Shown: positions 16,128 to 36,341, counted from the first letter of the stretch. The stretch is DNA of 64,000 nt from Sediminispirochaeta sp. (GCA_024763455.1 JANTFL010000001.1:26678-90677); one strand, 5' to 3'. The notes: generated by a model not told the origin, from the sequence alone. Made by a program: numbers and translations.

Positions 16128-16199
16128 TGGGGCGTTGGCAAGTGGTTAAGCCCCCGGTTTTTGGTGCCGGTATCGTAGGTTCGAATCCTACCGCCCCAG
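16128..16199 (+). tRNA. tRNA-Gln (anticodon TTG)
   Basis: TGGGGCGTTGGCAAGTGGTTAAG...anticodon loop TTTTGGT...GGTTCGAATCCTACCGCCCCA. Near-identical architecture to bacterial tRNA-Gln(UUG). Confidence 0.8.
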
Positions 16200-16872: not shown

Positions 16873-17445
16873 CTGTTTCTATTTATCGGTCTGGGCAATC
16901 CGGGAGAGAATTATTCGCAAACCCGGCACAACGCCGGGTTTCTTGTCTTGGACAGGATTGCTCAGAAATATTCAATTAATTTCAAGAAACCTTTCTTTAA
17001 AAAGTATCTCTACGGCAGAGGACAGTTACACGGCAAAGAGTTCATTATCGTAAAACCCCTTACTTATATGAATAATTCAGGGTTTGTTATCCCGGGATTA
17101 CTTAAAAAATTCCGCATCCCCTCTGAAAAAATGGTAGTTATCTGCGATAACATGGATCTGCCCTATGGTATGTGCAGAATAAAAAAGAAAGGGTCCGGTG
17201 GAGGGCACAATGGGCTCCGGTCCATTGATTCTTTTATGGAAGGCAGGGATTATACACGCCTCTTTGTAGGAGTTTCCAGACCGGATCGTAGTGTGAGTAT
17301 TATCGATCATGTCCTTTCTGTTCCCGATGGTTCCGACTTCCGGGATTTTATGAATGGGGTTGATAGAGCGTCGGGGGCCGTGGAAACGATAGTAGACAAA
17401 TCTGTAGAAGAAGCAATGCATGAATATAACAGAAGAATTACTTGA
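16873..17445 (+). CDS. pth: peptidyl-tRNA hydrolase; the only in-frame start able to include the catalytic N-terminus is CTG at 16873
   Basis: The in-frame translation from 16873 reads (M/L)FLFIGLGNPGENYSQTRHNAGF, the canonical Pth N-terminus with catalytic His. The first ATG/GTG/TTG (16948) would delete this. GAGGAAG SD at 16861-16867. Confidence 0.75.
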   Translation: MFLFIGLGNPGENYSQTRHNAGFLVLDRIAQKYSINFKKPFFKKYLYGRGQLHGKEFIIVKPLTYMNNSGFVIPGLLKKFRIPSEKMVVICDNMDLPYGMCRIKKKGSGGGHNGLRSIDSFMEGRDYTRLFVGVSRPDRSVSIIDHVLSVPDGSDFRDFMNGVDRASGAVETIVDKSVEEAMHEYNRRIT

Positions 17446-18814: not shown

Positions 18815-18819
18815 TTACT

Positions 18820-20712
18820 GTGGGAACACAAAATGAGCAGCCTAATGATAACAGAAATAAAGAACCTAACAATTTAAAATTTGATTTTAACAAGAACAGG
18901 TTTGCGCTGTTTTTTCTGTTATCACTCATAGCAATGTTTTTTATCCTTTTTCTGGTTAATGGAGACACTCCATCAATGGAGATTCCCTATTCAACATTTC
19001 TTACGTATCTTGAACAGGATCAGATCACTTCGGTCAAGATTCTGGATGGGAACGAAATTTATGGTACATTGTCCGGTCAGGCGGATAACCTTTCTACCTT
19101 CAAGACCCGAATTCCGTACTATGATGAATTGCTGATGAAAGATCTTCGGGAGAAAGGAGTCAAGGTGACCGGTGCACCAAAGCCTGTTTCTTTTGGTGAA
19201 ATTCTCCTTCAGCTTCTGCCATGGGTACTTTTTCTGTTTTTCTTCTGGTTCATGTTCAGACAGGTTCAGGGAGGGGGCAGCAAGGCTTTTTCCTTCGGCA
19301 AGAGCAAAGCGAGACAGTATTCCGACGAAAAGGAAAAGGTTCGGTTTAACGATGTAGCAGGTCAGGAAGAAGCCAAATATGAATTGAGTGAAGTTGTTGA
19401 TTTCCTCAAAAATCCATCGAAGTACACCCAGATGGGTGCAAAAATTCCAAAGGGAGTTCTTCTCGTCGGCATGCCGGGTACAGGAAAAACTTTAATGGCA
19501 AAAGCTGTAGCAGGGGAAGCCGGGGTTGCTTTCTTTCATATGTCCGGATCAGATTTTGTCGAGATGTTTGTCGGGGTCGGTGCCAGCAGGGTTAGGGATT
19601 TGTTTGATAAGGGACGTAAAAATGCACCCTGTATCCTGTTTATTGATGAGCTTGACGCAGTCGGAAGGACCAGGGGAGCTGGTTACGGCGGAGGCAACGA
19701 CGAGCGGGAACAGACTTTGAATCAAATGCTTGTTGAAATGGATGGATTTAATACAAAGGATGGAGTAATTATTCTGGCTGCAACCAACAGACCTGATGTA
19801 TTAGACCCTGCATTGTTACGCCCAGGACGGTTTGACAGACAGGTAGTTGTCGATATGCCGGATGTCAGGGAACGGGAGCAGATTCTTAAGATACATGCAT
19901 CCAAAATACCCTTGGGGAAGAACGTGGATCTGAACAGAATCGCAAAGGCTACTCCGGGCAGTTCGGGGGCTGATCTTGCCAATCTGGTAAATGAAGCAGT
20001 TTTGTATGCTGCGCGGTACAACGCAAAGGAAGTTACCATCGAGCATTTTGAAGAAGCAAGGGACAAACTCCTCCTCGGTGTTGCGAGGAAATCAAAGCTT
20101 ATTACCGCCGAGGAAAAGCGGGCAACTGCATATCATGAAGCCGGACACGCACTGCTTCACTATCATCTCGAGAATTCCGATCCCCTTCACAAGGTTACCA
20201 TTATTCCCCGGGGGAGAGCTTTAGGTATGGCTATTTCTCTTCCAGAAAAAGACTCTTATTCAAGGAAAAAAGGATGGCTTCTTGACAGGATAAAAATTGC
20301 CATGGGCGGATACGTTGCAGAGGAGCTTATTTACTCGGAAACAACGACCGGAACCCAGAATGATATCAAGCAGGCTACCGAAATAGCCCACCGGATGGTT
20401 ACTGAATGGGGGATGAGTGAAGAACTTGGTTTTATCTCATTAGGAAAGGAAGATGAGCCGATATTCATAGGGAAAGAAATAGCCAGACATAAAGATTACT
20501 CCGAGGAAACAGCCAGGAAGGTAGATGAAGAGATCAAGAAAATTATGGAAAGTTGTCTTGCAGAAACAAGAAAGATCCTTTCTGATAATATCAACCAGCT
20601 TAAAACTCTTGCAGAAGAACTTATTGAAAAGGAAACCCTTGATGATGCGGATATCAAGAAACTCCTTGGAATCCCTGAAAAGGATACTGAGCAGGAAGAA
20701 GAGAAAGAATAA
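18820..20712 (+). CDS. ftsH: ATP-dependent zinc metalloprotease FtsH
   Basis: Two TMs. Walker [12 protein letters not shown]. Zn motif HEAGHAL. Confidence 0.95.
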
Positions 20713-20725
20713 AACCCCGGCACAG

Positions 20726-22405
20726 CTTTTGACAGCAAAACTGTCAGCAGCAGTGTTGTTACTATTTTCTCTCTCCTTTTATGTGTTCCCTGAAAATTTG
20801 GAAACCCGGCAGGACAAAGAACTTGCCGGGGTTTACTTCAATAATGCCCTTTCCGCCTTAAAGGCGGGCAATAGTACCGGTTCCCTTGAATTACTGAATG
20901 TTTCAATCCTGTTCAACAAAGATTCCTCCGACTCAAGATATTTGAAAGCTTTAATTCTTTCAGATATGGGCAAATACCGACTCTCGCAGAAAGAATTGAA
21001 GATTGCTTTCCTCCTTGGCTCCTGGGAACATTTCAGCAGTTTTGACGGAAAGAAACTCTTTGCGGATAATTTCCTGCGTCAGGGAGATTCCACATCTGCA
21101 TACGAGACACTTGCTCCCCTTGCAGATACCCTCGGTACAGATGCATCAGCAGCAAGGGTTTTTGCCCTTTCATCGGCAGCTTCGGGGCACGTAAACCAGG
21201 CTGTCCAAACAGCACGGCTGTTCCCTTCAAAGGATTTTTCCCAAAAAATACTTGCAAGATATGATACAGGATGGCGGAATAGTGCAATCGGAAAGATACT
21301 GCAGGGTGATCCCGCATTGTACTATACCAAGGAGGCTGTACAGGAGATCATCTTACTCGCTCCCGATGCGTACCTGCCGAAAATGCTTTCATATTATCAA
21401 AACAGGTGGGGGGATGACCGCTTTTTCCAGATTAACTCGCTTATTACCAATGATTCCAGCCTGGAAAAAAGAATAGAGTTGGTATTTGCCAAAGCAGAGT
21501 CTATAGACAGAGCAGATATAGTGAGAATCAAACAGATTCTTGACAGAAAAAATATTGTGTATGATGCCAAAGCATTTTTTAAAGATAAAAAGATTATAAT
21601 CAATGAGGATGACAACAAAGACGGTCTTATAGACGGCCGGACAATACTTGATTCAGGGTTTATTACGGAAACAGTTGCAGATGCAAACCATGATACCCTC
21701 AACGATTACAAAATAACCAGTCCCGGTGGGAAAATTACAACAGTAATGATAAGGACCAATGACAAAAAGATAGAAGCTGCATATAAACCATACCCATTTC
21801 TCTCTGAATATACCGTTACCCTGGAAGGCCGGCGGAGAGTGTACCATCTTTTGCCATACAAAGCTGTGTACCCTGTTGTGGTGATTCCTGAATCCATTAT
21901 AGATGATACCCTGAGGTTAAATGAATATACACAAGAGCTTTCTCCTCTGTATTTGGAGACTGTTTCAACGCAGATAGAGGAAACCTCTTTGACTGGAGAT
22001 GATGTTCTCATTGCAGAAAGAAAGAGTCTGCAGGATACAGAACTCAAACTATTACATGATAACGGATTGGTTTTCTCAGAACGTGAGTACAGCGGTGAAA
22101 AAGTTACGGCTGAAAAAAAGGATTTAGATGGAGACGGTATACCGGATCTTCTATATACGTACAAAAACGGCTCTCTACAATCCGCACGTGTTGACAGAAA
22201 CCATAATGGCTACCCTGAATACATGGAAGAATATATTCCTGTGCACATAACGAAGTGGGATTTTGATGATGACGGGACTTTCGATTACCGGGAGTACATG
22301 GAAAAGGATAATCTGATTAGGGAGTATTCTACTAACATGGATGGAAATTTCGATCTGCGTTTTGAAGGAAGAGCAGGTACAGAAAACAGTGGTTTAGTTC
22401 AATGA
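20726..22405 (+). CDS. secreted TPR-like repeat protein with C-terminal DxDxDG calcium-binding-type motifs; the ORF is open from 20525 inside ftsH, with a likely TTG/GTG start after the ftsH stop
   Basis: Signal-peptide-like AKLSAAVLLLFSLSFYVF. TPR-like helices in the first half. Repeated DKDGLIDGR, DLDGDGIPD, DFDDDGTFD, NMDGNFD in the second half. Confidence 0.5.
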   Translation, partial: LLTAKLSAAVLLLFSLSFYVFPENLETRQDKELAGVYFNNALSALKAGNSTGSLELLNVSILFNKDSSDSRYLKALILSDMGKYRLSQKELKIAFLLGSWEHFSSFDGKKLFADNFLRQGDSTSAYETLAPLADTLGTDASAARVFALSSAASGHVNQAVQTARLFPSKDFSQKILARYDTGWRNSAIGKILQGDPALYYTKEAVQEIILLAPDAYLPKMLSYYQNRWGDDRFFQINSLITNDSSLEKRIELVFAKAESIDRADIVRIKQILDRKNIVYDAKAFFKDKKIIINEDDNKDGLIDGRTILDSGFITETVADANHDTLNDYKITSPGGKITTVMIRTNDKKIEAAYKPYPFLSEYTVTLEGRRRVYHLLPYKAVYPVVVIPESIIDDTLRLNEYTQELSPLYLETVSTQIEETSLTGDDVLIAERKSLQDTELKLLHDNGLVFSEREYSGEKVTAEKKDLDGDGIPDLLYTYKNGSLQSARVDRNHNGYPEYMEEYIPVHITKWDFDDDGTFDYREYMEKDNLIREYSTNMDGNFDLRFEGRAGTENSGLVQ

Positions 22406-24171
22406 AACGAGTAGTACTCCTTTTTCTCTCTTCCCTACTGATAATCTCCTGTGCAGGGCTCAGGGGTAATATCGGGAAAGATCCCCAACCTGTAGAGAAG
22501 GTTACGGTTGAGCGAATCAATTCGCTGATAGATGCAGGAGAGCTCGCAGAGGCATTTCAGGATCTTTCATGGCTGCCTGTTAACAGTAAAGCTGATAAAG
22601 CGGTCCTGGAGGAAAGATTAAAGAGCAAATTCCAATCCGAATATGATAAAGCTCTGGATAACAGTGGATATCTCGATGCCTACAGGATACTCATTTCAGT
22701 AAAAACCGCTGGGATTGAGATCAATAGCCGGGGTAGAACAGCAAACGATCTTATAAAGGAGCTGGTCTATTCACGGTCTGAAGAAAGCAGCCATGAATCA
22801 AGACTTTATGTTGCCAGAAAGTACTTTGACTTTGGCAGCCTGGGAAAAGAGGATCTGGGACGAATAACAGAAATGGCTGTGAAAGATGGGGATAAAGGGT
22901 TCCTTGAGTTTGTTGAGCCTTTTCTGAAGGAAAGAGGTCTTGACCCATCTCCTGACTTTAAAAAGGTACAAAAAAGCAGATATGCAAGTTCTCAGCTTAT
23001 TAAAGGAACCGTTACGATCTGGGTAAACCGGGGGATGAAAATTGAGAACGGTATGGGTATACCTGACCGGGTAATTGGCAGTGGTTTTTTTATTGACAGG
23101 AACGGATATATTCTCACCAACTACCATGTAATATCCAGTGAAGTAGATCCTGAGTATGAAGGATACTCCCGGTTGTATGTAAAGCTTTCAGATAATAGAA
23201 AGGAAAAGATTCCTGCGAAGGTTGTTGGTTGGGATTCTGTTTTTGATATTGCCTTGCTAAAAGTGGACAGTACTCCTGAAACGGTGTTCCGGTTCGGAAA
23301 AGAACAAGATTATGAACCGGGGACCCCTATTATTGCAATTGGCTCTCCAGGGGGGTTGGAAAATACAATTACATCAGGGATAATTTCAGCCTATGGGAGG
23401 AAGTTTCTTCAGCTTGGAACCGTTATCCAGGTTGATGCCCCGATAAATCATGGCAATAGCGGCGGACCGCTACTCGATATGGATAATAATCTTATCGGAG
23501 TCGTTTTCGCTGGTATTGAGCAGTTTGAAGGAATCAATTTTGCAATACCGAGCAGGTACATAGTAAGCCTTCTTCCTGATTTGTACCGGGGCGGAAAGGT
23601 AAAGCATCCTTTTCTCGGATTTTCCCTGACAGAAAAGAACAATACTGTATCGGTTACGTATGTAATGCCAGGGAGCAGCGCCGGCAGATCGGGAGTAGGA
23701 AAGGGCACGGTTATTAGAGAAATAAACGGTACCGGTATTGATTCTATTGAGAAGCTGCAGAGAGAGATGCTGAAGTATTCACCGGGCATGATCGTAAAAC
23801 TTGGAATGGAAAAAGATGGAAATCCCTTTAACGGATTCTTCGCTCTTTCGGCAAGACCTGAAATACCGGCGGAAGATGCTTATGACAACGATGCTACCGA
23901 AAATCTGTTTCTTCCTTTGTTTGGGATGGATGTGGATTCTGTTTCAACAGGAATAACAGGGAATAAATTTATAATCACTTCAATCCTTGAAGGATCAATT
24001 GCAGATGAATCAGGATTATCCGTCAACGATCCATTTACTGTGCAGAGGATCAAGATAGATAATGAAAATCATATCCTGTACATGGAGATTCGGATAAAAA
24101 GGAGAAAATCCGGTTTTCTAGAAAGCGGACTCATGCTGAGTACCTACCTGGAAACCGGTGATTTTATTTAA
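22402..24171 (+). CDS. HtrA/DegP-like trypsin-family serine protease lipoprotein with PDZ domain and ~200-aa N-terminal extension
   Basis: Lipobox LLIISC. Catalytic triad context TNYHVI, DIALLKV, GNSGGPLLD. PDZ-like C-terminus. ATGA overlap with the upstream gene. Confidence 0.8.
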   Translation: MKRVVLLFLSSLLIISCAGLRGNIGKDPQPVEKVTVERINSLIDAGELAEAFQDLSWLPVNSKADKAVLEERLKSKFQSEYDKALDNSGYLDAYRILISVKTAGIEINSRGRTANDLIKELVYSRSEESSHESRLYVARKYFDFGSLGKEDLGRITEMAVKDGDKGFLEFVEPFLKERGLDPSPDFKKVQKSRYASSQLIKGTVTIWVNRGMKIENGMGIPDRVIGSGFFIDRNGYILTNYHVISSEVDPEYEGYSRLYVKLSDNRKEKIPAKVVGWDSVFDIALLKVDSTPETVFRFGKEQDYEPGTPIIAIGSPGGLENTITSGIISAYGRKFLQLGTVIQVDAPINHGNSGGPLLDMDNNLIGVVFAGIEQFEGINFAIPSRYIVSLLPDLYRGGKVKHPFLGFSLTEKNNTVSVTYVMPGSSAGRSGVGKGTVIREINGTGIDSIEKLQREMLKYSPGMIVKLGMEKDGNPFNGFFALSARPEIPAEDAYDNDATENLFLPLFGMDVDSVSTGITGNKFIITSILEGSIADESGLSVNDPFTVQRIKIDNENHILYMEIRIKRRKSGFLESGLMLSTYLETGDFI

Positions 24172-25588
24172 AAGAATGCTTGATGACTTGATTGAAGACA
24201 AAGCTGTGAAAATTCTCGTTGTAGAGGATGAAGCGATCATTGCACATAATCTTATCAAGGAATTGAATACGAGTGGCTTTTCAGCCTCAGGGTTTGTAGA
24301 TACCGGAGAAAAGGCTTTGACGGAAATTGCAGAAAACCGTCCTGATCTTGTTATTCTGGATATTTCAATTAAGGGTAAAATAGATGGAATTAAGACGGCG
24401 GAGATAATCAAATCTCAATTTGGGATACCGTGTATATTCTATTCCGGTTGCGACGATCTTTCCTGTCTTAAGAGAGCCCGGCGTGCTGAACCCTATGGAT
24501 ATATCCCAAAGAATTCCACAAGAATCGATCTTTATACGACCGTCAGGATTGCTCTGCAGCGGTTCAGGATAGAGCAGGAATTTCGATCAAAAGATAGAAT
24601 GTTAAATGCAACGCTTAAAAGTATTTCCGATGCAGTTGTAGGGTTGAATCCCGAAGGAAAGATTATTGCATGGAACTGCGGAGCCGAAAAAATCTTCGGG
24701 TGGGTTGCTGATGATATTCTTGGTGATAATGTTGCTATCCTTGTCCCATCATACATACCGAACGAATTTCCGGGAATAATGGACGATCTCATTAAGACCG
24801 GCGATTTTAGACAATACGATACCCTTTTTCAACGGAAGGATAAAAAGATCTTCAATGCTGCAGTGACAATTTCACCGGTTGATGAACTTGGGGGTGGTAT
24901 CACAGGGTTTTCCCTGGTGGTCAAGGATATAAGTGATCGAAAAGAACTGGAAAAACAGATAATTGATATTCTGGAAGATGAACGGTTCAGAATCGGCAGG
25001 GATCTTCATGACAACCTCGGTCAATACCTGACAGGGATACTTTTAAAACTGAAGGTGCTTGAAACTTCCCTGGGGAAAAAGGGTATAGATGATGACAAGG
25101 CTATTGTTGTCAGAATTTCAAATCATGTGAAGATGGTCCTCGACAGGATGAGGGAGCTTTCAAGAGGGCTGATATCTCTGGGACTTCAGAAGATGAGTCT
25201 TAGGGAGGCAATTCATGAGCTCACCCTTTTCTATTCCAGAGTTAATGAGATAGAGGTTCTGTTCAATTCCGAGATGGAGTATAAAATCGTGAACTACCGG
25301 GTCGTTGTGCAGCTCTACCATATAACCCAGGAAGCTATAACAAATGCATTAAAACATGCATCATGCAGCCGTATCGAAATAGTCCTGAAAACCGATGAGA
25401 CCGATATAGTTCTTTCCATAAAGGATAATGGAAAGGGGTTCACCCTCAACGGCAGCTCCGGGATAGGACTGAAGATTATGAAGTATAGAGCTGGAATAAT
25501 AAATGGTCAACTTCAGATTTACAGTAACAGCTCCGGTTCCACCGTACAGTGCAGCATACCGAGGAAACTCATAAAGGAAGAGGTATGA
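24158..25588 (+). CDS. hybrid sensor histidine kinase: N-terminal receiver domain, PAS domain, HisKA_3 dimerisation domain, HATPase_c
   Basis: REC: ILVVEDE...DLVILDISIKG...K. PAS: LKSISDAVVGLNPEGKIIAWN. H-box ERFRIGRDLHDNLGQ (NarX/DegS type). G-boxes DNGKGF...GIGLKIM. Confidence 0.8.
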   Translation: MILFKRMLDDLIEDKAVKILVVEDEAIIAHNLIKELNTSGFSASGFVDTGEKALTEIAENRPDLVILDISIKGKIDGIKTAEIIKSQFGIPCIFYSGCDDLSCLKRARRAEPYGYIPKNSTRIDLYTTVRIALQRFRIEQEFRSKDRMLNATLKSISDAVVGLNPEGKIIAWNCGAEKIFGWVADDILGDNVAILVPSYIPNEFPGIMDDLIKTGDFRQYDTLFQRKDKKIFNAAVTISPVDELGGGITGFSLVVKDISDRKELEKQIIDILEDERFRIGRDLHDNLGQYLTGILLKLKVLETSLGKKGIDDDKAIVVRISNHVKMVLDRMRELSRGLISLGLQKMSLREAIHELTLFYSRVNEIEVLFNSEMEYKIVNYRVVVQLYHITQEAITNALKHASCSRIEIVLKTDETDIVLSIKDNGKGFTLNGSSGIGLKIMKYRAGIINGQLQIYSNSSGSTVQCSIPRKLIKEEV

Positions 25589-26232
25589 ACGAAAAGAAAA
25601 TCCTGATTATAGAGGATCATCCTATTGTCAGAAAGGGTTTCAGTATGCTGATAAATCAGGATGATGAATTACAAACCATAGGGGAAGCAGGGGATTATCA
25701 CAGTGCTCTTGAAATGGTGCGGAATACAGAGGCAGACCTGATTTTGCTGGATTTATCACTGGGTGACGGAAACGGGATAGAGCTTATCAAAGAGATTAAA
25801 GTTATTAACCCGGCACTTCCGGTTTTGGTTGTATCACTCCATGATGAGAATCTATACGCCGAGCGGGCTCTTAAAGCAGGTGCTAAAGGGTACGTTATGA
25901 AAAGTGAAGCAACCGATAATATTCTGACTGCCATAAAAAAAATCATGAACGGCGAGGTGTATCTCAGCGAAGGGATGAAAGATAAATTCATAAACAGAAT
26001 GGCGGGAATGGGTAAGGAGGGTTCTTCTCCCATGGATATCCTGAGTGACCGGGAATTTGAAGTCTTTCAGTTTATCGGTGACGGCCGTACAACAAAGGAG
26101 ATAGCCCAGTTTTTAAACCTGAGTATCAAAACTGTAGAAACATATAAATCACATATAAAAACCAAACTTGAAATCAAAGATTCAACAGACCTTATCAGGA
26201 GAGCTGTTGAATGGAAAGTTGCTGACAGCTGA
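25585..26232 (+). CDS. NarL/FixJ-family response regulator (REC + LuxR-type HTH); the ORF is open from 25549
   Basis: [13 protein letters not shown]...[60 protein letters not shown] overlap with the kinase stop. Confidence 0.85.
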
Positions 26233-26278
26233 AACCCCTCTTATTGAAGTCCTTACTCCTTTCAGGTATAGTGGGCTT

Positions 26279-28081
26279 ATGAAAGTACCGAGAGAACGAA
26301 TTAGAAATTTCTGTATTATTGCGCATATAGACCACGGCAAATCGACCCTGGCAGACAGGTTTATCGAAAAAGCCATGATTATAGATAAACGTAAATTCCA
26401 GAATCAGCTTCTGGACAGTATGGATATCGAGCGGGAACGAGGTATTACTATTAAATCCCAGGCGGTAACAATTCCCTATATCGGGAAGGAGGGGGAGATG
26501 TACACTCTGAATCTTGTTGATACCCCTGGACATGTGGATTTCTCCTATGAGGTTTCAAGAGCAATTTCCTCCTGTGAAGGCGCTCTTCTTCTTATTGATG
26601 CAAGTCAAGGAGTGGAAGCACAGACCCTGGCAAATATGTATATGGCTCTTGAACACGATCTGGAAATAATCCCGGTAATTAACAAGATAGACCTGCCCAG
26701 TGCTGATATAGATTTTGTCAAGCACCAGATCGATCATGATCTTGGTCTCGATTCCGATACCGCAGTGCTTGTATCAGCAAAGACGGGGGAGGGGGTAGAT
26801 GACCTTCTTGAGGCTCTGGTTGAATATGTTCCAGCTCCCAGAGGTGATGAAAACATTCCTCTAAAGGCCCTTATCTTCGATTCTCACTACGATCCATACA
26901 GAGGGGTGATTATACACGTAAGAGTCTTCGAAGGCACCCTGAAAAGCGGTGATACCATAAAACTCTTCTTTTCAGAGAATAGCTATAAAGTTGAGGAAAC
27001 CGGTATTTTCAGAATAGATTTGGAAAAAAAGGATAGACTGACATCCGGCGAGGTAGGATACATTATTGCAGGTATCAAGACCATTTCCGACATCAGAATC
27101 GGAGATACGATAACTGTAGTGGATAACCCCTGCAGTGAACCTTTGGATGGATTCAAAGAGGTACAGCCTGTTGTTTTTTCGTCGATTTATCCCGTCGATT
27201 CCGAGGATTACGAGGAACTGCATACAGCAATAGACAGGCTGAAACTGAATGATGCTTCCTTGGTATATGAAAAGGATTCTTCAGCCGCCCTTGGCTTCGG
27301 TTTCAGGTGCGGGTTTCTCGGTCTGCTTCATCTGGAAGTTGTACAGGAGCGGTTGGAGCGGGAATTCGGCCTCTCCATAGTGTTTACTTCCCCTTCGGTT
27401 CAGTATCATCTGTTTTTGAAAAACGGGGAGGATCATTTTATAGATAACCCTCTTGAGTTCCCTGATCCGATGCAGATAGAGTATGTTGAGGAGCCTTATA
27501 TCAAAGCAACCCTTATTACCCCCTCCGAATTTGTCGGGGGTATTATAAAGCTGTGCCTTGAAAAGCGGGGGGTTCAGGAATCAATGCATTATCTCGATGA
27601 GAAACGGGTGGAGCTTGTCTATGATATGCCTCTTGCAGAAGTTATTTTTGATTTTTATGATAGACTTAAATCAATCAGTCGGGGATATGCATCCTTTGAC
27701 TACGAGATCGATGACTTCAGGAGAACAGATCTTGTCAGACTTGATATCATGGTTAACGGGCAGGTAGTGGATGCTCTCTCCCAACTTGTATTCAGGGAGA
27801 ACGCTGTTCCAAGAGCAAGAGTAGTCTGTAAGAAGCTCAGAGAAGAGATCCCCCGTCAACAATTCAAGATACCCATACAGGGTGCAATTGGAAGCACAAT
27901 CATTGCCAGGGAGACAATATCCGCTCTACGAAAGGATGTCACTGCTAAATGTTACGGTGGAGATATATCTCGGAAGAGAAAACTTCTCGAGAAACAGAAA
28001 GAGGGAAAGAAGCGGATGAAAATGGTGGGGAATGTCGAAGTACCCCAGTCAGCTTTTCTTTCTGTCCTCAAGAGTGATTGA
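26279..28081 (+). CDS. lepA: elongation factor 4 (LepA); the ORF is open from 26168
   Basis: [33 protein letters not shown]. Carries the LepA-specific C-terminal domain. Confidence 0.92.
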
Positions 28082-29707
28082 CAGTGATTTTGTAAGAATG
28101 CCCCTGAAATATTCAGCCGAGAGCAGTACTCTTTTTATGTAATCTGGTGAAGCTTCATCTTTTGGAGGGAAGTCGGGGAAGTGTTTAAACAGGTAGTCCA
28201 TGGAGGAAAGGAGTTTTTTGACAGCTTCCCTGTCGGAAACTTCTCCCGCCAAAAATCTGTAGAGACCTGAATGCAGTTCCTCGATTTTTTTAAGCTCCTC
28301 TTCAAGAAATGAGATGTTTTTTACTAATCCCGGTTCAGTAACACTCCGTTTCGCTGAAGCATCTTCCCCTGCTGCAGGAATACTGCCCTCCTCACCAATA
28401 GCTTCGTCAATTTCTTGAATTATTCTTCCAGCGGATCTAAGTCCCAAAGTACCCAAATCGTACAATCTTTTTTCTTTTCCAAAATAAGCATTCATTAGGA
28501 GTGCGTATGAATAAAGAATTGTGTTTGAAAGCCTCATTGCTCCTCTTTTATCCTCTGTTTTCCTATACGGACGTGTAAGGAAAATATCGATGTTTTCGAC
28601 CGGAATAAGGCGTGTTGTATCAAAAAGTATAGAGGACTGAAAAGGGGTCCCCCTGGCATGAGACTTTCCGAGAATATATGAAAAATCAAGCCCCGTGTGA
28701 ATAACCGGTCCGCTGCTCATCATAAGGGCTATATAGACAGCGGTTATCCCGACCGATCCAAGGGGAGGGAGCATTGCAAGGTCCTTGAATTGGCTTCTGA
28801 CCCGTGTTATCAGGGTATTGTCATTGAATACCGAAAGGAAGGGATAAAGTGGGCCATTGAAGTTTCTGACTATGGAGGGGTAACAGGTTAAGTCGAAGAA
28901 CAAGGGGATGGAACTTTTTGTAAGTCCGATAAAATCAAAAAGATTGTAAACTTGCGCATCAACAGCAACTATGTAATCAGGGGTAATACCACTCTTCAAA
29001 AGGGCTGAAACCGCTGTATCAACAGCAACTAGTGCGATTTCATGCTGGTGGCGTTTTATCTGCGGTATCGATTCTTCCAGGGACTCACCGGCTCCCGTGA
29101 CAAGAACAGGACGGGAGTGTTCTATTCCGGTAAAATTCCCATTAATTATCCTGTCTTGATGTTCTTCGGTTAACGAAGCCATATTTAAAAATATATTTCT
29201 GATCCAGAGCGGCGCCATGTGTATTTCAGTCATCCTGTTCTGCCAGAACTCTTTGACTGCTGCTTCCAGAACCCCGAGTATCCTTTGATACTCATCTTTG
29301 TTCAGAAGATATCCCCCGGTAAGGGTAATCATTGATACTCTTCTGAAATGGTGAATACCGGCTTGCCGGAGTATTTGTAGGGCTTCCTGGATGTCGTTTC
29401 CGATATAATGAAAGCGGCTGTCCCGGGGGACAGAGGTACCAGTTTTTTCATAAAGATTAAAAAGTTTTTGATCAGTTTCGATAGCCAGGACCAGGCAGTC
29501 ATCCGGTAGATTTTGCAGCAGGGGTTCAATACCGTAAAAAAGGAGCGGAGAGGGAATAAAAAGGACAGTTTTCGGCAGAATCTTTATATGCCGAACTTTC
29601 CTTTCAACGGATTCTACAGGTGTTAGTGTATTGTAAAGATGTCTTTTCCGGTAAAAAACAGAAAACCCTCTGCCTGTATCAACAAGAAGAGGGTTTTGAG
29701 GCTTCAT
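28049..29707 (-). CDS. Maf-family (motility accessory factor; DUF115/MptE-like, PF01973) protein, paralog 1
   Basis: [11 protein letters not shown]...IVAVDAQ...[18 protein letters not shown]...[16 protein letters not shown] aligns with the two Maf paralogs at 42064-45253. Confidence 0.65.
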
Positions 29708-29720
29708 ACCTTTACTGCCC

Positions 29721-31268
29721 TTAGTTGGTTCTTAACACTTGCTGTGAGAAAACTGACAGGAAGTTATTCTTGAGTTTATCGGAACTCAGAAATTTCCTGT
29801 ATAACGACTCCTGTCTGAACTGATCAACAAGATATGCATAATATGCATCCAGATAGGCAAGTTCATCTGCACCAACGTTTCGTTCTTCAATGAGCTGTGC
29901 CACAATCACTGAATTGTCCAGAATCAAAGGCTCGGTTGTTTCATTTTTCTTTAATGAAAAGAGAGCTTTCAGGGCTCTTTCGTCGGTTGCAGCAGCGTTG
30001 AGTTCTTTGTCGTCATCCAAGGCTCTGATCTGCTTCATAAAATAGCTGTTACCATAGTTAATTGGAAAGTAGTCAGTCACATGAGAGGTAAGGTTCATTC
30101 CACTGCCTGCCGTATCGAATCCTGAAGTGGAAGCATTTTTTCTGAAATTTTCAGCTTTTGATACAAAGAAATCTTCGACTTTACCTTTTTCATTAGTAAG
30201 GAGATAATTTCTGATGTCAGCAATATCTTCTTCCGCAGCAAAGTCGGGATCGGTCCTTTCGTTATTTACCCGGTAAATACTGTAGCCGTAAGGTGTTTTG
30301 ATCAGGGAACTTAACTCTCCTGATTTAAGCGTGAAAACGGTATCAAGGTCTTTACTGTCAGAGAAATCCCCGGTAAGTGAGTGGTATCTGACCCAGCCCA
30401 TATCTCCGCCTTTATCAGCGTATATATCAGTTGACTGATTCTGGGCAATTTCTTCAAAGCGTGCAGGGTTTTCTTTAAGCTGTGTATAGAGAGTATCAGC
30501 TGTTTTTTTATCATCCTTAAGTGAAATGCGGCTTAGATTTACCTTTGCAAAAAGAGCTGAGTTATCCCTGCCGTAGGATATCACTTCCGAATCAGGATAT
30601 GCATCAAAGCTGAATGCCACGTATTTAAAACTCCGTTCAGGAGAAGACATTCCCTTTACAAAATCTTTTTCCTTTTCAGATGAGAGGGTACTGCTTACAT
30701 CACTTAAATACTGCTGCTGCGTAAGCTCTTCACGGTAGAGCTGCCGGGTTGCGTATTTCTCCGAATTAGGGGTGGAATTATAGATTTCAGGGCTGAATTT
30801 CCCGTTATCCATATATGGACCGTACTGGGTAAGAGCTTTGTCTATCCGGTGGTCGGAAATATACAGACCGCTCTCTTTTGCACTGTCAAGGATTGCCATA
30901 TGGAAGACTGTACTGTCAAAGGCACCCTTCCAGATCTGATACGTCTGGTACTGGTAGTTTGAACTGGTGGTATCTGTATTCTGATATTTTTGAACAAAGG
31001 AGTCCAACTGACGTGCGAAATAGCTATTTTGAGTGTATTTTATATCCTTACCGGCGTATTGACCGAAAGTCATATCCTGCCCGCCGCCTAATAGTCCTCT
31101 GAAAAAGGGCGCTCCTACAAAACTGACAACAACCAGTACAAGGATTGCAATACTGAAAACCCATAGAAACGGGTGTTTATGTTGTTTTTCTGCTACAATA
31201 TTTTCTTTGTTTTTTGAAGGCATATGTTCCTCATATTTCTCATAAAATGGCGTTCCAAACCATACCAC
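29721..31268 (-). CDS. periplasmic chaperone/peptidyl-prolyl isomerase PpiD-like (N-terminal TM anchor, parvulin domain)
   Basis: TM PFLWVFSIAILVLVVVSFVGAPFF. Parvulin signature DKGGDMGWVRYHSL...TPYGYSIYRV. Confidence 0.55.
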   Translation of the reverse strand: MVWFGTPFYEKYEEHMPSKNKENIVAEKQHKHPFLWVFSIAILVLVVVSFVGAPFFRGLLGGGQDMTFGQYAGKDIKYTQNSYFARQLDSFVQKYQNTDTTSSNYQYQTYQIWKGAFDSTVFHMAILDSAKESGLYISDHRIDKALTQYGPYMDNGKFSPEIYNSTPNSEKYATRQLYREELTQQQYLSDVSSTLSSEKEKDFVKGMSSPERSFKYVAFSFDAYPDSEVISYGRDNSALFAKVNLSRISLKDDKKTADTLYTQLKENPARFEEIAQNQSTDIYADKGGDMGWVRYHSLTGDFSDSKDLDTVFTLKSGELSSLIKTPYGYSIYRVNNERTDPDFAAEEDIADIRNYLLTNEKGKVEDFFVSKAENFRKNASTSGFDTAGSGMNLTSHVTDYFPINYGNSYFMKQIRALDDDKELNAAATDERALKALFSLKKNETTEPLILDNSVIVAQLIEERNVGADELAYLDAYYAYLVDQFRQESLYRKFLSSDKLKNNFLSVFSQQVLRTN

Positions 31269-31337
31269 GTGCTTTTAGATGTGTCAATTCTCTTAATAGT
31301 AATTGTATTTTCTCACTATTGTTTGTATATTAAAAAT

Positions 31338-31853
31338 ATGTTATGCGATGTTTGCGGAAAAAGAGAAGCGGCGATACATATTCAGCAGATCATAGGAAAG
31401 AAAGTGATTGATCTGCACTTGTGCCGGCAGTGTGCCAGGGAGAAGAATGTCTCGGAAACAGAGGGGTCTGTAAACAATTCAATTATAAATTTGGTAAAGA
31501 ATCTCCTGGATGGAACTCGTTTGACACAGTTCATTGATCAAAAAACTACGTATTGCCCGACTTGTAATACAAAACTGCATGAAATCAGAGAAACCGGAAA
31601 GACGGGTTGCCCCGACTGTTACAGAGAGTTTAGAACAGTTATCCGTGAATCTCTGGGTGTGGGAAACACACCTCTTCTGCATAACGGCAACATCCCTGAA
31701 AAGCTGAAGAGCTATAAAACAATTCTGGTTGACAGAGAAAAGCTGAAAAAAGAGCTTGAAGAGGCAGTGTTTAAAGAGGATTACGAAACTGCCGTTGTAC
31801 TGCGGGATAAGCTGAAGGAACTTGAGATTGAGCTGGGAAGGGGTAATGAGTAG
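31338..31853 (+). CDS. mcsA: protein-arginine kinase activator McsA (zinc-finger + UVR domain)
   Basis: MLCDVCGKREA...CRQCAREK and CPTCNT...CPDCY are two CxxC pairs. C-terminal UVR motif EDYETAVVLRDKLKELE. Followed by mcsB and clpC. Confidence 0.7.
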   Translation: MLCDVCGKREAAIHIQQIIGKKVIDLHLCRQCAREKNVSETEGSVNNSIINLVKNLLDGTRLTQFIDQKTTYCPTCNTKLHEIRETGKTGCPDCYREFRTVIRESLGVGNTPLLHNGNIPEKLKSYKTILVDREKLKKELEEAVFKEDYETAVVLRDKLKELEIELGRGNE

Positions 31854-32901
31854 TTTTTCAGGATTTGAAACTGCTCCTCTTTGGTGCAGGAAGGAAGGAG
31901 AAGCGCGTGATGTAGTCCTATCCAGCAGGGTAAGACTGTCGAGAAACCTGGCGGGATTTACTTTTCCTGAAAAATTGACCCTAAAGGATGAGGAAGAGGT
32001 AAAGAATATTGTCCTTTCAGCGGTAGAAACAAGCAACCAGTACAAGGATATGGAAGTTCTGTACATGAACGATGTTATTCCTGTTGAAAGAATGATGCTG
32101 TTCGAGAAAAGGCTTGTTTCCAGGGATTTTTCTGAAGGCAGGAATAAAGCGGTCGTTATACGGAGTGATAAGAGTCTTTCCTGCATGGTTAATGAAACCG
32201 ACCACCTTAAGATAGCTGCGTATACCGGTGGGCTTGATCTTGAAGAGGCATTTAATGAAGCCCGGGAGTTTGACGTAGCATTGGAAAAAAATCTGGATTA
32301 TGCAGTTTCTCTGGAGTTTGGATATCTCACCAGTCAGATAAAGAATGCCGGGACCGGTATGAAAGCTTCAGTTATGCTTCACCTGCCGTTTCTTGTAAGA
32401 ACAGGGCTGTTGGATAGAGCGATTAAATCCTCACTGACGGAGGAATTCTCAGTAAAAGGCTTTTTAAGTGATGAAGAAAACTCTCTGGGAGACCTGTATC
32501 AGGTTTCAAACGAAGTATCGATAGGAATAAGCGAAGAGGCATATTTGAAAAAACTGCAGACAGTGGCATCTTCACTCATGGGGTATGAACGACGGGCACG
32601 GGACCAGTTCTACAAGAGTAAAAGCATGGAGCTGGAAGATATATTTTACCGGGCTTATGGAATCCTTAAAAACTGCAGACTTCTGTCTTTGAAGGAAGCG
32701 GTACGGTATCTTATGGATTTTAGAATTGGAATAATAATGGGTTGGTCCGATGTCCCTTTGGAACGGATTGACTATCTGATAATTCTGGTGCAGAAAGCGC
32801 ATATCCAGTCTACTCTTGACTTTGATGAGGAATCAAACTCAAAAATTATTAATTATACCCGTTCAAAGCTTGTCAAAAGATATCTTGAGTTACTACAATA
32901 G
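31846..32901 (+). CDS. mcsB: protein arginine kinase McsB (ATP:guanido phosphotransferase family)
   Basis: SSRVRLSRNLAGFTFPEKL matches the McsB signature. Phosphagen-kinase C-domain core. 8-nt overlap with mcsA. Confidence 0.75.
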   Translation: MSSFSGFETAPLWCRKEGEARDVVLSSRVRLSRNLAGFTFPEKLTLKDEEEVKNIVLSAVETSNQYKDMEVLYMNDVIPVERMMLFEKRLVSRDFSEGRNKAVVIRSDKSLSCMVNETDHLKIAAYTGGLDLEEAFNEAREFDVALEKNLDYAVSLEFGYLTSQIKNAGTGMKASVMLHLPFLVRTGLLDRAIKSSLTEEFSVKGFLSDEENSLGDLYQVSNEVSIGISEEAYLKKLQTVASSLMGYERRARDQFYKSKSMELEDIFYRAYGILKNCRLLSLKEAVRYLMDFRIGIIMGWSDVPLERIDYLIILVQKAHIQSTLDFDEESNSKIINYTRSKLVKRYLELLQ

Positions 32902-32916
32902 GAGTAGGGGGATCAT

Positions 32917-35409
32917 ATGTATAAGGGGCTAACACAACGGGCTAAATTAATAGTAACCGTATACTCACAGGAAGAGGCAAAGCGGTTCAGATCAGACCAG
33001 CTTTTACCGGAACATATACTCCTGGCAATAATAAAAGAGGGCGAAGGGACAGGTTTAAAGGTTTTGAAATCCTTAAAAATAAATCCTGTTGAACTTCAGC
33101 TGGAGATTGAGAAGGGAATTCCCAGAAAACACTCAGGATATATCCTGGGAGACGTATCACTATCCAGAAGAGGGACGCGAATTATTGAAGACTCTGCCGA
33201 AGAAGCAAAAGCTCTTGGCCATGAGTATATTGGTACAGAACATTTTATTCTTGCAGCTATTAAAGAGCAGGGGAGTATTCTTCAGCGTTTCCTCGGAAAA
33301 AACGGAGTTTCATACAGTGATTTTCGGAAGGCAGTCATTGCCATGCGGGGCGCCGGTTCAAATTCGGCAAGTAGAAATACCCGGTTTCAGGCACAAAAGA
33401 AGAATCAGCCGGTGAGCAGCAAGAAGGGAACACCTACCCTGAACGACTTCTCCAGGGATCTTACAGAGTATGCCCGCAAAGGAGCCCTTGACCCTGTCAT
33501 AGGTCGGGAACAGGAGATTAAAAGGGTTATCCAGATTCTTGCCCGGCGCACAAAAAACAATCCGGTTCTTGTAGGTGAGCCGGGAGTAGGGAAGACGGCA
33601 ATAGTCGAAGGACTGGCCCAGCGGATCGTGGACGGGACGGCACCCGATTTACTTCTTGGTAAACGGGTTTTGACCCTGGATATTGCTTCTCTCATTGCGG
33701 GAACAAAATACAGGGGAGAGTTTGAGGAACGTCTAAAGCGTGTAATGAAAGAGATCCGTAATGATGGAAACGTGATTCTTTTTATTGATGAACTGCACAC
33801 AATAATAGGAGCCGGCGGTGCTGAGGGGGCAATTGATGCGTCTAATATGTTAAAACCTGCCCTTTCCAGAGGTGAGATTCAGTGCATCGGTGCAACTACA
33901 TTAAATGAATACAGGAAATATATTGAAAAAGATTCAGCTTTGGAGAGAAGATTTCAGAGTATTTTTGTGGATGAACCTACGGTGGAGGATACAATAAAAA
34001 TACTTAACGGAATTAAAAAGCAATATGAGAATCATCATAATGTAGAATATGAAGATAAGGCAGTTACCGCAGCTGCAATGCTCTCGCACAGGTATATCTC
34101 AGACAGGTTCCTTCCTGACAAAGCAATTGATCTGCTGGATGAAGCAGGTGCAGTAAAAAGAATTAACAATACTGTACGGCCGGGCAGTATACGGAAGATG
34201 GAGGAAGAGATTGAAGAACTCACTTCAAAAAAGATTGAACTGGTCAATAATCAGGACTACGAGAGGGCAGCAGCTGTCAGAGATCAGGTTCGCCAGCTTA
34301 AGCTCGAAATGGATAAAAAACTCAATGACTGGAATAGTTCCATGAAGGTGGAAAAGGTAACAGTCTATGAAACCGATATAGATGAGATAATATCCAGTAT
34401 CACCGGGATACCAGCAGCCAGGATTGCTGAGAGTGAATCGGAAAAGCTCCTTCAGATTGAGAGTGAACTGCATAAAACAGTAATAGGACAGAATGAAGCA
34501 ATAACCGCTATTGCATCAAGTATAAGACGGTCAAGAACAGGACTTTCTTCTCCTGGAAGACCTTTGGGGTCCTTTATTTTCCTGGGACCCACAGGGGTGG
34601 GAAAGACTCTCCTTGCAAAAACCCTTGCACAGTATCTTTTTGGAAAAGAAGATGCACTTGTAAGGATAGATATGTCCGATTTTATGGAAAAACACAACAT
34701 TAGCCGGCTGGTTGGAGCACCCCCCGGGTATGTAGGATATGAAGAGGGAGGACTTCTCACCGAGAAAATTCGGAGACGACCTTACAGTGTTATCCTTCTT
34801 GATGAGATTGAAAAAGCACATCCTGACGTTTTTAATCTTCTGCTTCAGCTTCTTGAGGAAGGGGAGCTTCAGGATAATCTGGGACATAAGGTTTCTTTTA
34901 AGAATACTGTTCTTATTATGACATCCAACGCAGGAGCCAGAGAAATCTCACAGGAAAATTCTCTGGGGTTTAAATCCAACGATGGAATACTGAGTTACTC
35001 AGAGATACGGGCTTCTGCTTTAAATGAACTCCGGCTTCAATTCCGACCTGAGTTTATAAACAGAGTGGACGAGATTGTAGTCTTCAACAGCCTCACAAGA
35101 GAAGAGATAAGAAATATTGTGGATATTCTCCTTGATGAGATTAAGTTACGGCTGCTTGAGATGAATATAATCCTGGAATTGAAGAAAAGTGCCAGAGAGT
35201 ATCTGGTTGATAACGGTTATGATCCGAAGTTCGGCGCACGGCCATTACGAAGAGTCCTTCAAAAAGAGATAGAAGACCCCCTTTCCGTTCAAATACTTGA
35301 GGGGAAATGTCCTGCCGGTAGCAGGGTTACCGCAGGAGTACGTAAAGGGCATCTCTCTTTTGCGATAGATAAACCAAAACTTATAGAAGCTAAAACACCG
35401 GTTGTATAA
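32917..35409 (+). CDS. clpC: ATP-dependent Clp protease ATP-binding subunit ClpC (AAA+, two NBDs, UVR motif)
   Basis: Two Clp_N repeats. GEPGVGKT and GPTGVGKT. UVR NNQDYERAAAVRDQ. 830 aa. Confidence 0.9.
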   Translation: MYKGLTQRAKLIVTVYSQEEAKRFRSDQLLPEHILLAIIKEGEGTGLKVLKSLKINPVELQLEIEKGIPRKHSGYILGDVSLSRRGTRIIEDSAEEAKALGHEYIGTEHFILAAIKEQGSILQRFLGKNGVSYSDFRKAVIAMRGAGSNSASRNTRFQAQKKNQPVSSKKGTPTLNDFSRDLTEYARKGALDPVIGREQEIKRVIQILARRTKNNPVLVGEPGVGKTAIVEGLAQRIVDGTAPDLLLGKRVLTLDIASLIAGTKYRGEFEERLKRVMKEIRNDGNVILFIDELHTIIGAGGAEGAIDASNMLKPALSRGEIQCIGATTLNEYRKYIEKDSALERRFQSIFVDEPTVEDTIKILNGIKKQYENHHNVEYEDKAVTAAAMLSHRYISDRFLPDKAIDLLDEAGAVKRINNTVRPGSIRKMEEEIEELTSKKIELVNNQDYERAAAVRDQVRQLKLEMDKKLNDWNSSMKVEKVTVYETDIDEIISSITGIPAARIAESESEKLLQIESELHKTVIGQNEAITAIASSIRRSRTGLSSPGRPLGSFIFLGPTGVGKTLLAKTLAQYLFGKEDALVRIDMSDFMEKHNISRLVGAPPGYVGYEEGGLLTEKIRRRPYSVILLDEIEKAHPDVFNLLLQLLEEGELQDNLGHKVSFKNTVLIMTSNAGAREISQENSLGFKSNDGILSYSEIRASALNELRLQFRPEFINRVDEIVVFNSLTREEIRNIVDILLDEIKLRLLEMNIILELKKSAREYLVDNGYDPKFGARPLRRVLQKEIEDPLSVQILEGKCPAGSRVTAGVRKGHLSFAIDKPKLIEAKTPVV

Positions 35410-35411
35410 TT

Positions 35412-36341
35412 ATGAATTTAGAATTATTTATTCTCGGTACAGGGGGTATGATGCCCCTGCCCGGGAGATTTCTCACGTCAGCACTCCTCAGGAGAGAGGG
35501 AGAACTTTTCCTTTTTGACTGTGGTGAAGGGACCCAGGTATCTTTACGAAAGCTTAATTTAAAATGGAAAAAGATATCAGTAATCTTTATCAGCCACACC
35601 CATGCAGATCATGTTACCGGCCTTCCCGGGATACTTATGCTCTCCAGTCAAGTTGAGCGGGACGAGCCGTTATACATAATAGGACCTCCGAATATAAAGG
35701 AGTACGTCGAATCCAGCAGAAAAGCTTTGGATATGTACATAAACTATGAGATTATAGTCAAGGAGATTAATGAACCGGGAATTGTATACGAAGGAGACGG
35801 CTATTCGGTCAAAGCTTTTTCCCTTCAGCATACAAAACCCTGCTTTGGCTATACGCTGGTGGAGGATCCCCGTCCCGGTGTCTTTAATCCGGATGCTGCC
35901 CGGAATCTTCAAGTCCCCATGGGACCTTTATGGGCACGGCTGCAGTCAGGTGAAAATGTTACTCTGGAAAACGGAATTGTCATAACACCGGAGATGGTGC
36001 TTGGGGAGCAGCGAAAGGGGAGAAAATTTTCCTTTGTTACAGATACAAAATATTTTAGTGGTATAAAGGATAATGTGAAAAATTCTGATGTTCTTATCTG
36101 TGAGGGGATGTTCAGGGATGAGCTGAAGGAAAGTGCCGCAGAAAAAAAACATATGACTGCCACCCAGGCGGCTACCATAGCAAAAGAAGCAGGAGGTGTT
36201 AAAAAAATGGGACTGATTCATTACAGCCCACGGTACACCGAATATGACTTGAGGTTTCTCTTAAAAGAAGCAAAAACGATTTTTCCAAATACCTTTCTTT
36301 CCAGGGATGGTCAATCCGTGAATATCCCTTTCGAGGATTAA
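35412..36341 (+). CDS. rnz: ribonuclease Z (metallo-beta-lactamase fold)
   Basis: LGTGGMMP, FDCGEGTQ, ISHTHADHVTGLPG. Confidence 0.8.
   Translation: MNLELFILGTGGMMPLPGRFLTSALLRREGELFLFDCGEGTQVSLRKLNLKWKKISVIFISHTHADHVTGLPGILMLSSQVERDEPLYIIGPPNIKEYVESSRKALDMYINYEIIVKEINEPGIVYEGDGYSVKAFSLQHTKPCFGYTLVEDPRPGVFNPDAARNLQVPMGPLWARLQSGENVTLENGIVITPEMVLGEQRKGRKFSFVTDTKYFSGIKDNVKNSDVLICEGMFRDELKESAAEKKHMTATQAATIAKEAGGVKKMGLIHYSPRYTEYDLRFLLKEAKTIFPNTFLSRDGQSVNIPFED

Follow-up and report, generated by a model that had tools for sequence, protein, structure and literature searches.

The DNA considered here is a 64,000-nucleotide stretch from Sediminispirochaeta sp. (GCA_024763455.1 JANTFL010000001.1:26678-90677), ‘the window’ in what follows, with positions counted from its first letter. 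Its source is an uncultured Spirochaetota metagenome-assembled genome (MAG), and at 31338-35409 it carries, head to tail on the + strand, homologues of mcsA, mcsB and clpC. As a tag, phospho-arginine (pArg) is regarded as what bacteria have in place of ubiquitin, and homologues of McsB outside Gram-positives receive the name protein arginine kinase on the strength of homology. An earlier note on this DNA had likewise read the trio as an arginine-phosphorylation module. The three open reading frames (ORFs), their homology and their Bacillus ctsR-operon order are all as it had described them; the label fares less well, with Cys167, Glu121, Glu212 and Arg337 of McsB all replaced and unconstrained across a spirochaete clade in which the three-gene linkage persists despite the loss of these residues. 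The genes are:

31338..31853, + strand: mcsA homologue, 171 amino acids, two Cys4 zinc fingers and a UVR coiled coil
31846..32901, + strand: mcsB-like gene, 351 amino acids, McsB fold with a phosphotransferase-like domain and an McsB_C dimerisation domain
32917..35409, + strand: clpC, 830 amino acids, class I AAA+ unfoldase

The mcsB start is placed at ATG 31846, in keeping with the genes of 351-352 amino acids called in relatives, rather than at TTG 31822, and mcsA and mcsB overlap by 8 nt.

The middle ORF belongs to the McsB lineage. Its product matches the ATP:guanido phosphotransferase family PF00217 (E=5e-47), contains the guanido-kinase signature pointed out in the earlier note (SSRVRLSRNLAGFTFP), and in pairwise comparison gives 206 bits against solved McsB versus at most 90 bits against phosphagen kinases. 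A profile made from 22 sequences aligns residues 9-349 to McsB structures (E about 1e-95), and the McsB structures score 206-324 bits against the protein. Since its alignment to arginine kinases begins only at their residue ~118, the N-terminal helical domain is absent, and the McsB_C dimerisation domain (PF27454) is precomputed for the protein and its relatives; the architecture is that of McsB, a catalytic domain lacking the N-terminal helical domain and followed by McsB_C. An AlphaFold2 model from the 22-sequence alignment (predicted local distance difference test score, pLDDT, 81; predicted template modelling score, pTM, 0.83) superposes on Geobacillus stearothermophilus McsB (6FH1) with a template modelling (TM) score of 0.91 over 350 columns. 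The only internal segments of low confidence, 155-168 and 208-212, are the loops with the equivalents of Cys167 and Glu212. A generic phosphagen kinase, which the earlier note had named as one outcome that would undo its case, is ruled out by the difference in bit scores, the missing N-terminal domain and the presence of McsB_C, to which the closeness of the model to McsB can be added.

The hidden Markov model (HMM) confirmation proposed at the outset has two sides: PF00217 and the full-length McsB profile are matched, and the curated NCBIfam models are not. The best of these, NF002194, gives 302.5 bits where its cut-off is 385, the McsB model NF053707 gives 265 where 500 is required, and the protein lies under every NCBIfam protein-arginine-kinase cut-off. 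Naming of the spirochaete McsB-like proteins is inconsistent, some clusters (P0121, P0137 and P0280) and others (P0013, P0132 and more) differing as to ‘hypothetical protein’ from the NCBI Prokaryotic Genome Annotation Pipeline (PGAP) versus ‘protein arginine kinase’ from JGI/IMG. The PGAP choice is consistent with scores under the NCBIfam cut-offs.

Where the spirochaete proteins depart from canonical McsB emerges from an alignment of 197 sequences in Bacillus subtilis numbering, with a canonical set of 75 (33 Bacillota, 42 Planctomycetota) and a spirochaete clade of 121. In the canonical set N119-E-E-D-H123, C167-P-T-N170 and R207-G-x-Y-G-E212-G are essentially invariant, with Glu121 and Glu212 each retained in 75/75, Cys167 in 74/75 and Arg337 in 72/75. 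In the spirochaete clade Cys167 is found in 0/121, and so is the full triad of Glu121, Cys167 and Glu212. Position by position, the clade and the window protein read:

Glu121: I, T, E, H, Q or K in the clade; Thr118 in the window protein (32197-32199), in the motif NETDH
Cys167: E, N, S or Q in the clade, never Cys; Gln164 in the window protein
Pro168: V, I or L in the clade; Ile165 in the window protein
Arg207: fixed as Lys in the clade (115/121); Lys204 in the window protein
Glu212: D, N or E in the clade; Asp209 in the window protein (32470-32472)
Ser285, of the pArg receptor: S, A or L in the clade; Leu282 in the window protein
Arg337, of the pArg receptor: I, V or L in 118/121 of the clade; Ile335 in the window protein (32848-32850)

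Cys167 has been called the catalytic cysteine, adjoining the NEEDH motif (PMC11046695), and the pArg receptor site consists of Arg337, Arg341, Ser285 and Asp338 (PMC8370763). In the window protein the codons for Gln164-Ile165 lie at 32335-32340 and the loop reads S-Q-I-K-N; none of the three catalytic residues Glu121, Cys167 and Glu212 is present, and of the four receptor residues Arg341 alone is retained (as Arg339), Asp338 having become Asn336. The residue correspondence is the same in three independent alignments, by pairwise phmmer, profile HMM and MAFFT, and at the active site the local alignments are free of gaps and flanked by invariant residues.

The loss is confined to particular sites. 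Among the 67 columns that are at least 95% conserved in canonical McsB, the two at which the spirochaete clade varies most are those of Glu121 and Cys167, with Glu212 ranking 8th and Arg337 12th; the probability of the three named catalytic columns all falling in the top 8 by chance is 0.0012. In 37 of the 67 columns the clade, too, is at least 95% conserved, among them R29, R31, R34, D122, H123, N170, G172-T173-G174, S178 and R341, which argues that the loss is site-specific and that the McsB-like protein is under purifying selection. The phosphate-binding positions have been treated more gently: R29, R31 and R34 are invariant in the clade, R125 is mostly Arg, and R176 is either Arg or Lys. 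The window protein still has R28 and R30, with Lys at the positions that correspond to R125, R176 and R207, and Lys may still bind phosphate. New invariant residues specific to the clade are S158, K197, S216, L217 and K321, and the conservation ranking brought out no newly conserved acidic residue, Cys or His in the clade as a candidate catalytic residue. NEEDH and C-P-[ST]-N are also found in the outgroup, the phosphagen kinases; if that signature holds for them generally, the spirochaete state is derived.

How far does the degenerate clade extend? An exhaustive search of 1.84 billion representatives yielded 1217 McsB-like clusters at E<=1e-30; the catalytic triad is present in about 109 of the 150 nearest of these, with a degenerate site in about 43. 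On clustering by the unweighted pair group method with arithmetic mean (UPGMA) on Kimura distances, with the diagnostic columns excluded, a single group of 50, with no full-triad member, takes in every degenerate sequence and every labelled spirochaete one, and the canonical group has 185 members, 180 with the full triad. The degenerate members that are named are Spirochaetales or Spirochaetia MAGs. The most decayed (P0143, P0137 and P0207) have lost nucleotide-binding residues too, P0143 reading ‘YKDH / SKLDN / ENFVNTE’, and still retain the mcsA-mcsB-clpC linkage. A separate protein search found 985 relatives at E<=1e-10, the named ones in the top 120 all being Spirochaetales MAGs, and an alignment of 22 sequences only 37-70% identical to the window protein has 48 invariant columns. 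Our literature searches on spirochaete McsB, or on McsB as a pseudokinase, turned up nothing relevant. A 2024 structure paper notes homologues of McsB in some Gram-negatives as being of never-identified activity (PMC11046695). As far as the searchable literature shows, the new point is that degeneration affects the whole spirochaete McsB clade, and at precisely those positions that serve catalysis and pArg binding.

The gene arrangement itself is ordinary for this clade. A genome scan with the McsB profile, taking one genome per species and classifying the neighbouring ORFs by phmmer, gave for the best 80 of at least 597 loci:

Bacillota, 33 loci listed: ctsR-mcsA-mcsB-clpC in 31
Spirochaetota, 5 loci listed plus the window: mcsA-mcsB-clpC, or the part of it that the contig covers, without ctsR within 10 kb
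Planctomycetota and others of the Planctomycetes-Verrucomicrobia-Chlamydiae (PVC) group, 42 loci listed: mcsA-mcsB without ctsR, clpC adjoining only in some (e.g. L006, L012-L014 and L072)

Seven further metagenome loci (L081-L087, with six distinct McsB proteins) also have mcsA-mcsB-clpC, and the closest relatives, L081-L084, share as far as their contigs allow the flanks of the window locus: lepA, an MptE-like gene, a ppiD-like gene, the trio, the RNase Z gene and ABC transporter genes. The earlier note had thought the presence and wiring of the module in a diderm worth examining, and had named a wide spread in this clade as an outcome that would refute it. The trio, or as much of it as the contig covers, stands at every spirochaete locus examined, the six spirochaete loci and L081-L087, and is thus widespread in the clade; canonical mcsA-mcsB without ctsR is common in Planctomycetota, and Chlamydia is a published case in a diderm. 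An operon without ctsR in a diderm is the norm outside Bacillota. McsAB of canonical type, complete in its catalytic residues, occurs widely among the diderm Planctomycetota, so that at the level of sequence it is no Gram-positive speciality. Chlamydia is known to have McsAB and ClpC (PMC10128030).

The partners of the McsB-like protein look intact. The four CxxC motifs of McsA make up two zinc fingers (C3/C6/C28/C31 and C73/C76/C91/C94) and are followed by a UVR motif at 134-163 (PF02151, E=7e-6), as had been noticed at first sight of the sequence. Residues 1-166 align end to end with residues 3-177 of B. subtilis McsA (PDB 8wtb_B, E=1e-22), and the score with the NCBIfam McsA model, 103 bits, is under its cut-off of 210. 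The two Cys4 domains, the C-terminal coiled coil and the position of the gene directly 5' of mcsB are what is expected of McsA, and spirochaete McsA retains both zinc fingers, the H-x-G-K-[IL]-P loop and the coiled coil. A separate observation is that in the three Planctomycetota McsA proteins inspected (L006, L014 and L045) the second zinc finger has Asp for its fourth Cys (G-C-x-x-D-Y versus G-C-x-x-C-Y); McsB of these loci is fully canonical.

ClpC has, by Pfam, two Clp_N repeats, AAA, AAA_lid_9, a UVR match forming the short M-domain (the UVR that the earlier note had seen), AAA_2 and D2-small. Walker A and Walker B are readable in both AAA modules, and an LGF loop, SLGFKS, lies at the position of the ClpP-docking loop YVGFN of B. 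subtilis, from which docking to ClpP is expected. With this set of domains, M-domain and loop it has the appearance of an unfoldase that is fully competent and coupled to ClpP. The position of B. subtilis ClpC Arg5, which we take to be a site of McsB phosphorylation, is Gly in 6/6 spirochaete ClpC. The ClpC N-terminal domain (32917-33360; L001-L004 and L075) calls for an observation in its own right: its first Clp_N repeat has LLPEH in 6/6 spirochaete ClpC, the motif elsewhere being invariant as I/V-G-T/S-E-H, and relative to IGTEH of B. subtilis it is Gly30-Thr31 that has become Leu-Pro. Equivalents of Thr7, Arg9, Glu32 and Glu106 of the pArg pockets are retained in 6/6 spirochaete ClpC N-terminal domains. 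As the residues of these pockets also stabilise the ClpC resting state (PMC12583610), their presence is no proof that pArg is read.

For its regulation and surroundings the locus was compared with three relatives whose McsB is 61-70% identical to the window protein (four genomes in all). The features flanking or overlapping the module are:

29721..31223, - strand: PpiD-like periplasmic chaperone / prolyl isomerase gene, with Pfam SurA_N_2/3 and Rotamase
31259..31287, - strand: sigma-70-type promoter of the ppiD-like gene, TTGACA-17-TG-TATGGT, scan 10/12 with extended -10, conserved
31303..31331, + strand: promoter-like element for mcsA, TTGTAT-17-TATATT, hexamers invariant in four genomes
32870..32899, + strand: promoter-like element TTGTCA-18-TACAAT inside the mcsB 3' end, scan 10/12
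35412..36341, + strand: RNase Z gene, NCBIfam RNase Z 379 bits with a cut-off of 252

The ppiD-like gene is a neighbour of the module rather than a part of it. It is divergent from mcsA, as had been described, and syntenic in relatives, whose copies also have PF27392 (TP_0929_3rd). Its start is put at ATG 31223, behind a conserved GAGGAA Shine-Dalgarno, GTG 31268 not being favoured, and the intergenic region (31224-31337) is on that account 114 nt rather than the 69 nt first given. It has 76% DNA identity in the four genomes, with both hexamers of the ppiD-like promoter invariant. The mcsA element was missed by the consensus promoter scan because its -35 matches at only 3/6 positions. Its -10-like TATATT ends 6 nt 5' of the ATG, and there is no Shine-Dalgarno here or in L084 (5460-5495), from which the mcsA mRNA of the window genome and L084 is probably leaderless; L081 and L082 (about 5450-5500) have ~30 extra nt with a Shine-Dalgarno before mcsA. 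The element within mcsB is followed by a GGGGGA Shine-Dalgarno and then the clpC ATG. The stretch that contains it has 89% DNA identity across the four genomes, and in the region 32840-32916 the final ~20 mcsB codons have third positions invariant at a frequency of 0.55 versus 0.16 over the gene. Such synonymous-site conservation suggests that the DNA or RNA itself has a function here, the simplest candidate being a promoter, and clpC probably has its own promoter inside the 3' end of mcsB. We infer the promoter functions of both the mcsA and the clpC elements from this sequence evidence.

Control by the usual heat-shock repressors left no trace here. In the four-genome alignment no inverted or direct-repeat operator is evident between ppiD and mcsA. 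The search for heat-shock operators that the earlier note had suggested found neither a CtsR box nor CIRCE in this region: matches to the CtsR box with up to 3 mismatches numbered 9 where 8.5 are expected by chance, with zero in 31224-31337, and the HrcA/CIRCE operator had 0 matches. The only match with 2 mismatches, GTTCAAAGCTTGTCAAA (32861-32877, + strand), was set aside as a chance match, lying as it does inside mcsB, with 0.69 such expected and its first half-site unconserved in relatives; it overlaps the -35-like hexamer of the internal element. No homologue of CtsR, YwlE, ClpP or MecA was found by phmmer among all stop-to-stop ORFs of the 64-kb window (E<=10), the CtsR query having a control match of 286 bits on a Bacillus locus. 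Nor is there a CtsR gene within 10 kb on either side at the five scanned spirochaete loci or at any Planctomycetota locus scanned, where the same search, as a positive control, found it at 31/33 Bacillota loci; at L081-L087 no CtsR Pfam family is among the called genes, no CtsR-directed search having been made there. The absence of ctsR and of the direct repeat that had been asserted is therefore borne out, and with neither ctsR upstream nor a GGTCAAA-N3-GGTCAAA operator the locus is outside what is meant by a CtsR regulon.

On the other side RNase Z begins 2 nt past the clpC stop. Being co-directional and syntenic in relatives it is probably co-transcribed with clpC, though functionally it stands outside the module. 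Further upstream the region 17420-31223 is rich in protein homeostasis genes, with tilS, ftsH (18820-20712), a gene for an HtrA/DegP-like protease (22402-24171) and the PpiD-like chaperone; between these are genes for a hybrid histidine kinase and a LuxR-type response regulator, lepA and an MptE-like (DUF115) gene. An ORF of 626 amino acids (20525-22405, + strand) between ftsH and the HtrA-like gene is without a Pfam match at E<=1e-5; as listed, its first 188 nt coincide with the end of ftsH, and the true start is therefore probably further downstream. The Rfam matches in the window at the gathering threshold are just five tRNA genes (4984-5133, 16128-16199 and 58238-58438), with no riboswitch or other known RNA near the operon at that threshold.

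What, then, might such a protein do? The locus is of the mcsA-mcsB-clpC family by descent, in a spirochaete version. We do not file its McsB-like protein as a protein arginine kinase because it lacks the catalytic residues, the complete pArg receptor and the curated score, and most likely it no longer phosphorylates arginine by the canonical mechanism. From residue conservation we infer both a loss of kinase activity and an adaptor role. Roughly an even chance can be given to the McsB-like protein being a McsA-assisted adaptor or regulator/activator of ClpC that works without kinase activity, or at any rate without arginine-kinase activity. The wider proposition, that McsB of Spirochaetota is a natural, evolutionarily stable pseudokinase serving, with McsA, purely as adaptor or activator in a ClpC quality control that dispenses with the pArg degradation tag, we would put near the midpoint between doubt and belief. 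Transcription would come from an ordinary, operator-free sigma-70-like promoter, with a second promoter for clpC and without CtsR or HrcA control. The McsB-like protein still has the McsB fold, the domain for dimerisation and the majority of the basic residues for the nucleotide phosphates; those that position and activate the substrate guanidinium (Glu121, Cys167-Pro168 and Glu212) have been lost, together with the receptor Arg337. Its complex with McsA would bind misfolded or specific clients and the ClpC N-terminal domain, and would thereby activate ClpC and pass the clients on for unfolding and degradation by ClpP. The adaptor role is proposed by analogy, as kinase-dead B. subtilis McsB still does so in part: the C167S protein is kinase-inactive and yet stimulates the ClpC ATPase to about 50%, sustains disaggregation and is located at aggregates (bioRxiv 10.1101/2022.09.15.508104).

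Several points weigh against a kinase-independent role. At 212 the window protein still has an acid (Asp209), of the two Glu in NEEDH it retains the first (Glu117), and there is a subclade, 18/121 sequences, with Glu121, Glu212 and Ser167. In phosphagen kinases, as arginine-kinase mutagenesis has brought out, the individual Glu and Cys residues contribute strongly, though not each of them is absolutely essential. The conservation of the phosphate-binding positions as Arg or Lys argues that ATP still matters, and some phosphotransfer is therefore possible. With its pocket residues retained, ClpC could go on reading pArg placed by some other enzyme, and elsewhere in the genome there is possibly a second, canonical McsB or a YwlE-type phosphatase.

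The foremost competitor of the adaptor reading, tentative as we consider it, is a working protein-arginine kinase: McsA-activated McsB would mark arginines with the help of a variant site, e.g. Glu117 and Asp209, ClpC would read pArg and ClpP degrade. The missing CtsR regulator would on this view be the sole difference from Bacillus. Full-length homology and identity of fold with McsB speak for an active kinase, as do the McsA with intact zinc fingers encoded next door, the conserved basic residues for nucleotide binding, D122-H123 and N170-G-T-G, the retained Thr7, Glu32 and Glu106 of the ClpC pArg pocket, and the JGI labelling of clade members as protein arginine kinase. It has to contend with a catalytic Cys in 0/121, when in B. 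subtilis a change as conservative as C167S is enough to inactivate the enzyme, and with free variation at positions 121, 167 and 212 that extends to the non-ionisable Ile, Asn and Leu. The receptor Arg337 is hydrophobic in 118/121, some members that still keep the operon are also without R207-G208 and N170, and the scores are under the NCBIfam cut-offs.

A good deal less probable, in our estimate, is that the McsB-like protein uses ATP otherwise, either with another acceptor (side chain or small molecule) or as a sensor of nucleotide state that gates ClpC. This would account for the selective keeping of phosphate-binding positions (R29, R31 and R34 invariant, R207 fixed as Lys) while the guanidinium-binding residues were lost, and for the invariant S158, K197, S216, L217 and K321 of the clade. 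It is at odds with the want of a newly conserved acidic residue, Cys or His as catalytic group, and with the most divergent members having lost phosphate-binding residues too; we also know of no precedent in the McsB protein family, which counts against it. That the gene is a decaying, functionless remnant has the loss of the catalytic signature to recommend it and is scarcely credible, a pseudogene being rejected on the conservation of intact ORFs across hundreds of sequences (the 985 matches), the 48 invariant columns, the strict synteny with mcsA and clpC and the confident McsB-like model.

Where does this leave the reading of the locus with which we began? Its observation is confirmed and its interpretation partly supported. 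The spirochaete clade has kept the partnership of McsA, McsB and ClpC and dropped the catalytic and pArg-receptor residues. If an adaptor role is true, this would be a natural separation of the adaptor function of McsB from its kinase function; if confirmed, it would provide a natural test case for effects of McsB and McsA on ClpC beyond phosphorylation, and would argue against transferring the ‘protein arginine kinase’ annotation to spirochaete genomes. Presumably the KEGG mcsB label should likewise not be so transferred.

Several known systems help to place this one. The nearest in layout is the class III heat-shock operon ctsR-mcsA-mcsB-clpC of B. subtilis and G. stearothermophilus, with the same order of mcsA, mcsB and clpC, the same zinc fingers and UVR in McsA, an McsB without the phosphagen N-terminal domain and with McsB_C, and a ClpC with double Clp_N, short M-domain and ClpP loop. 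The window locus differs in having no ctsR and no CtsR operator, and probably in an internal promoter for clpC. In place of Glu121, Cys167-Pro168 and Glu212 of Bacillus McsB there are Thr, Gln-Ile and Asp, in place of Arg337 and Ser285 Ile and Leu, and three phosphate-binding Arg are Lys; in ClpC Arg5 is Gly and the first repeat has LLPEH, not IGTEH.

With phosphagen kinases (PF00217) the likeness is one of catalytic-domain fold, a Foldseek TM of about 0.55 over about 240 residues only, and unlike them the window protein is without the N-terminal helical domain and has the extra C-terminal dimerisation domain. Their active-site signature, which we take to be the PROSITE pattern C-P-x-[ST]-N-[ILV]-G-T, is not matched by S-Q-I-K-N-A-G-T of the window protein. 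McsAB of Planctomycetota and others of the PVC group, and of Chlamydia, resembles the spirochaete system in being that of a diderm, with mcsA-mcsB and no ctsR, but Planctomycetota keep the full canonical catalytic signature and Arg337 (42/42), and in Chlamydia, known here from the literature alone, mcsAB is separated from clpC (PMC10128030).

For a possible role the closest functional analogue is a product of the laboratory, B. subtilis McsB C167S, which is also missing the catalytic Cys and still binds the ClpC N-terminal domain (bioRxiv 10.1101/2022.09.15.508104). It has one engineered change in an otherwise canonical protein, whereas the substitutions of the spirochaete clade are several, natural and evolutionarily stable.

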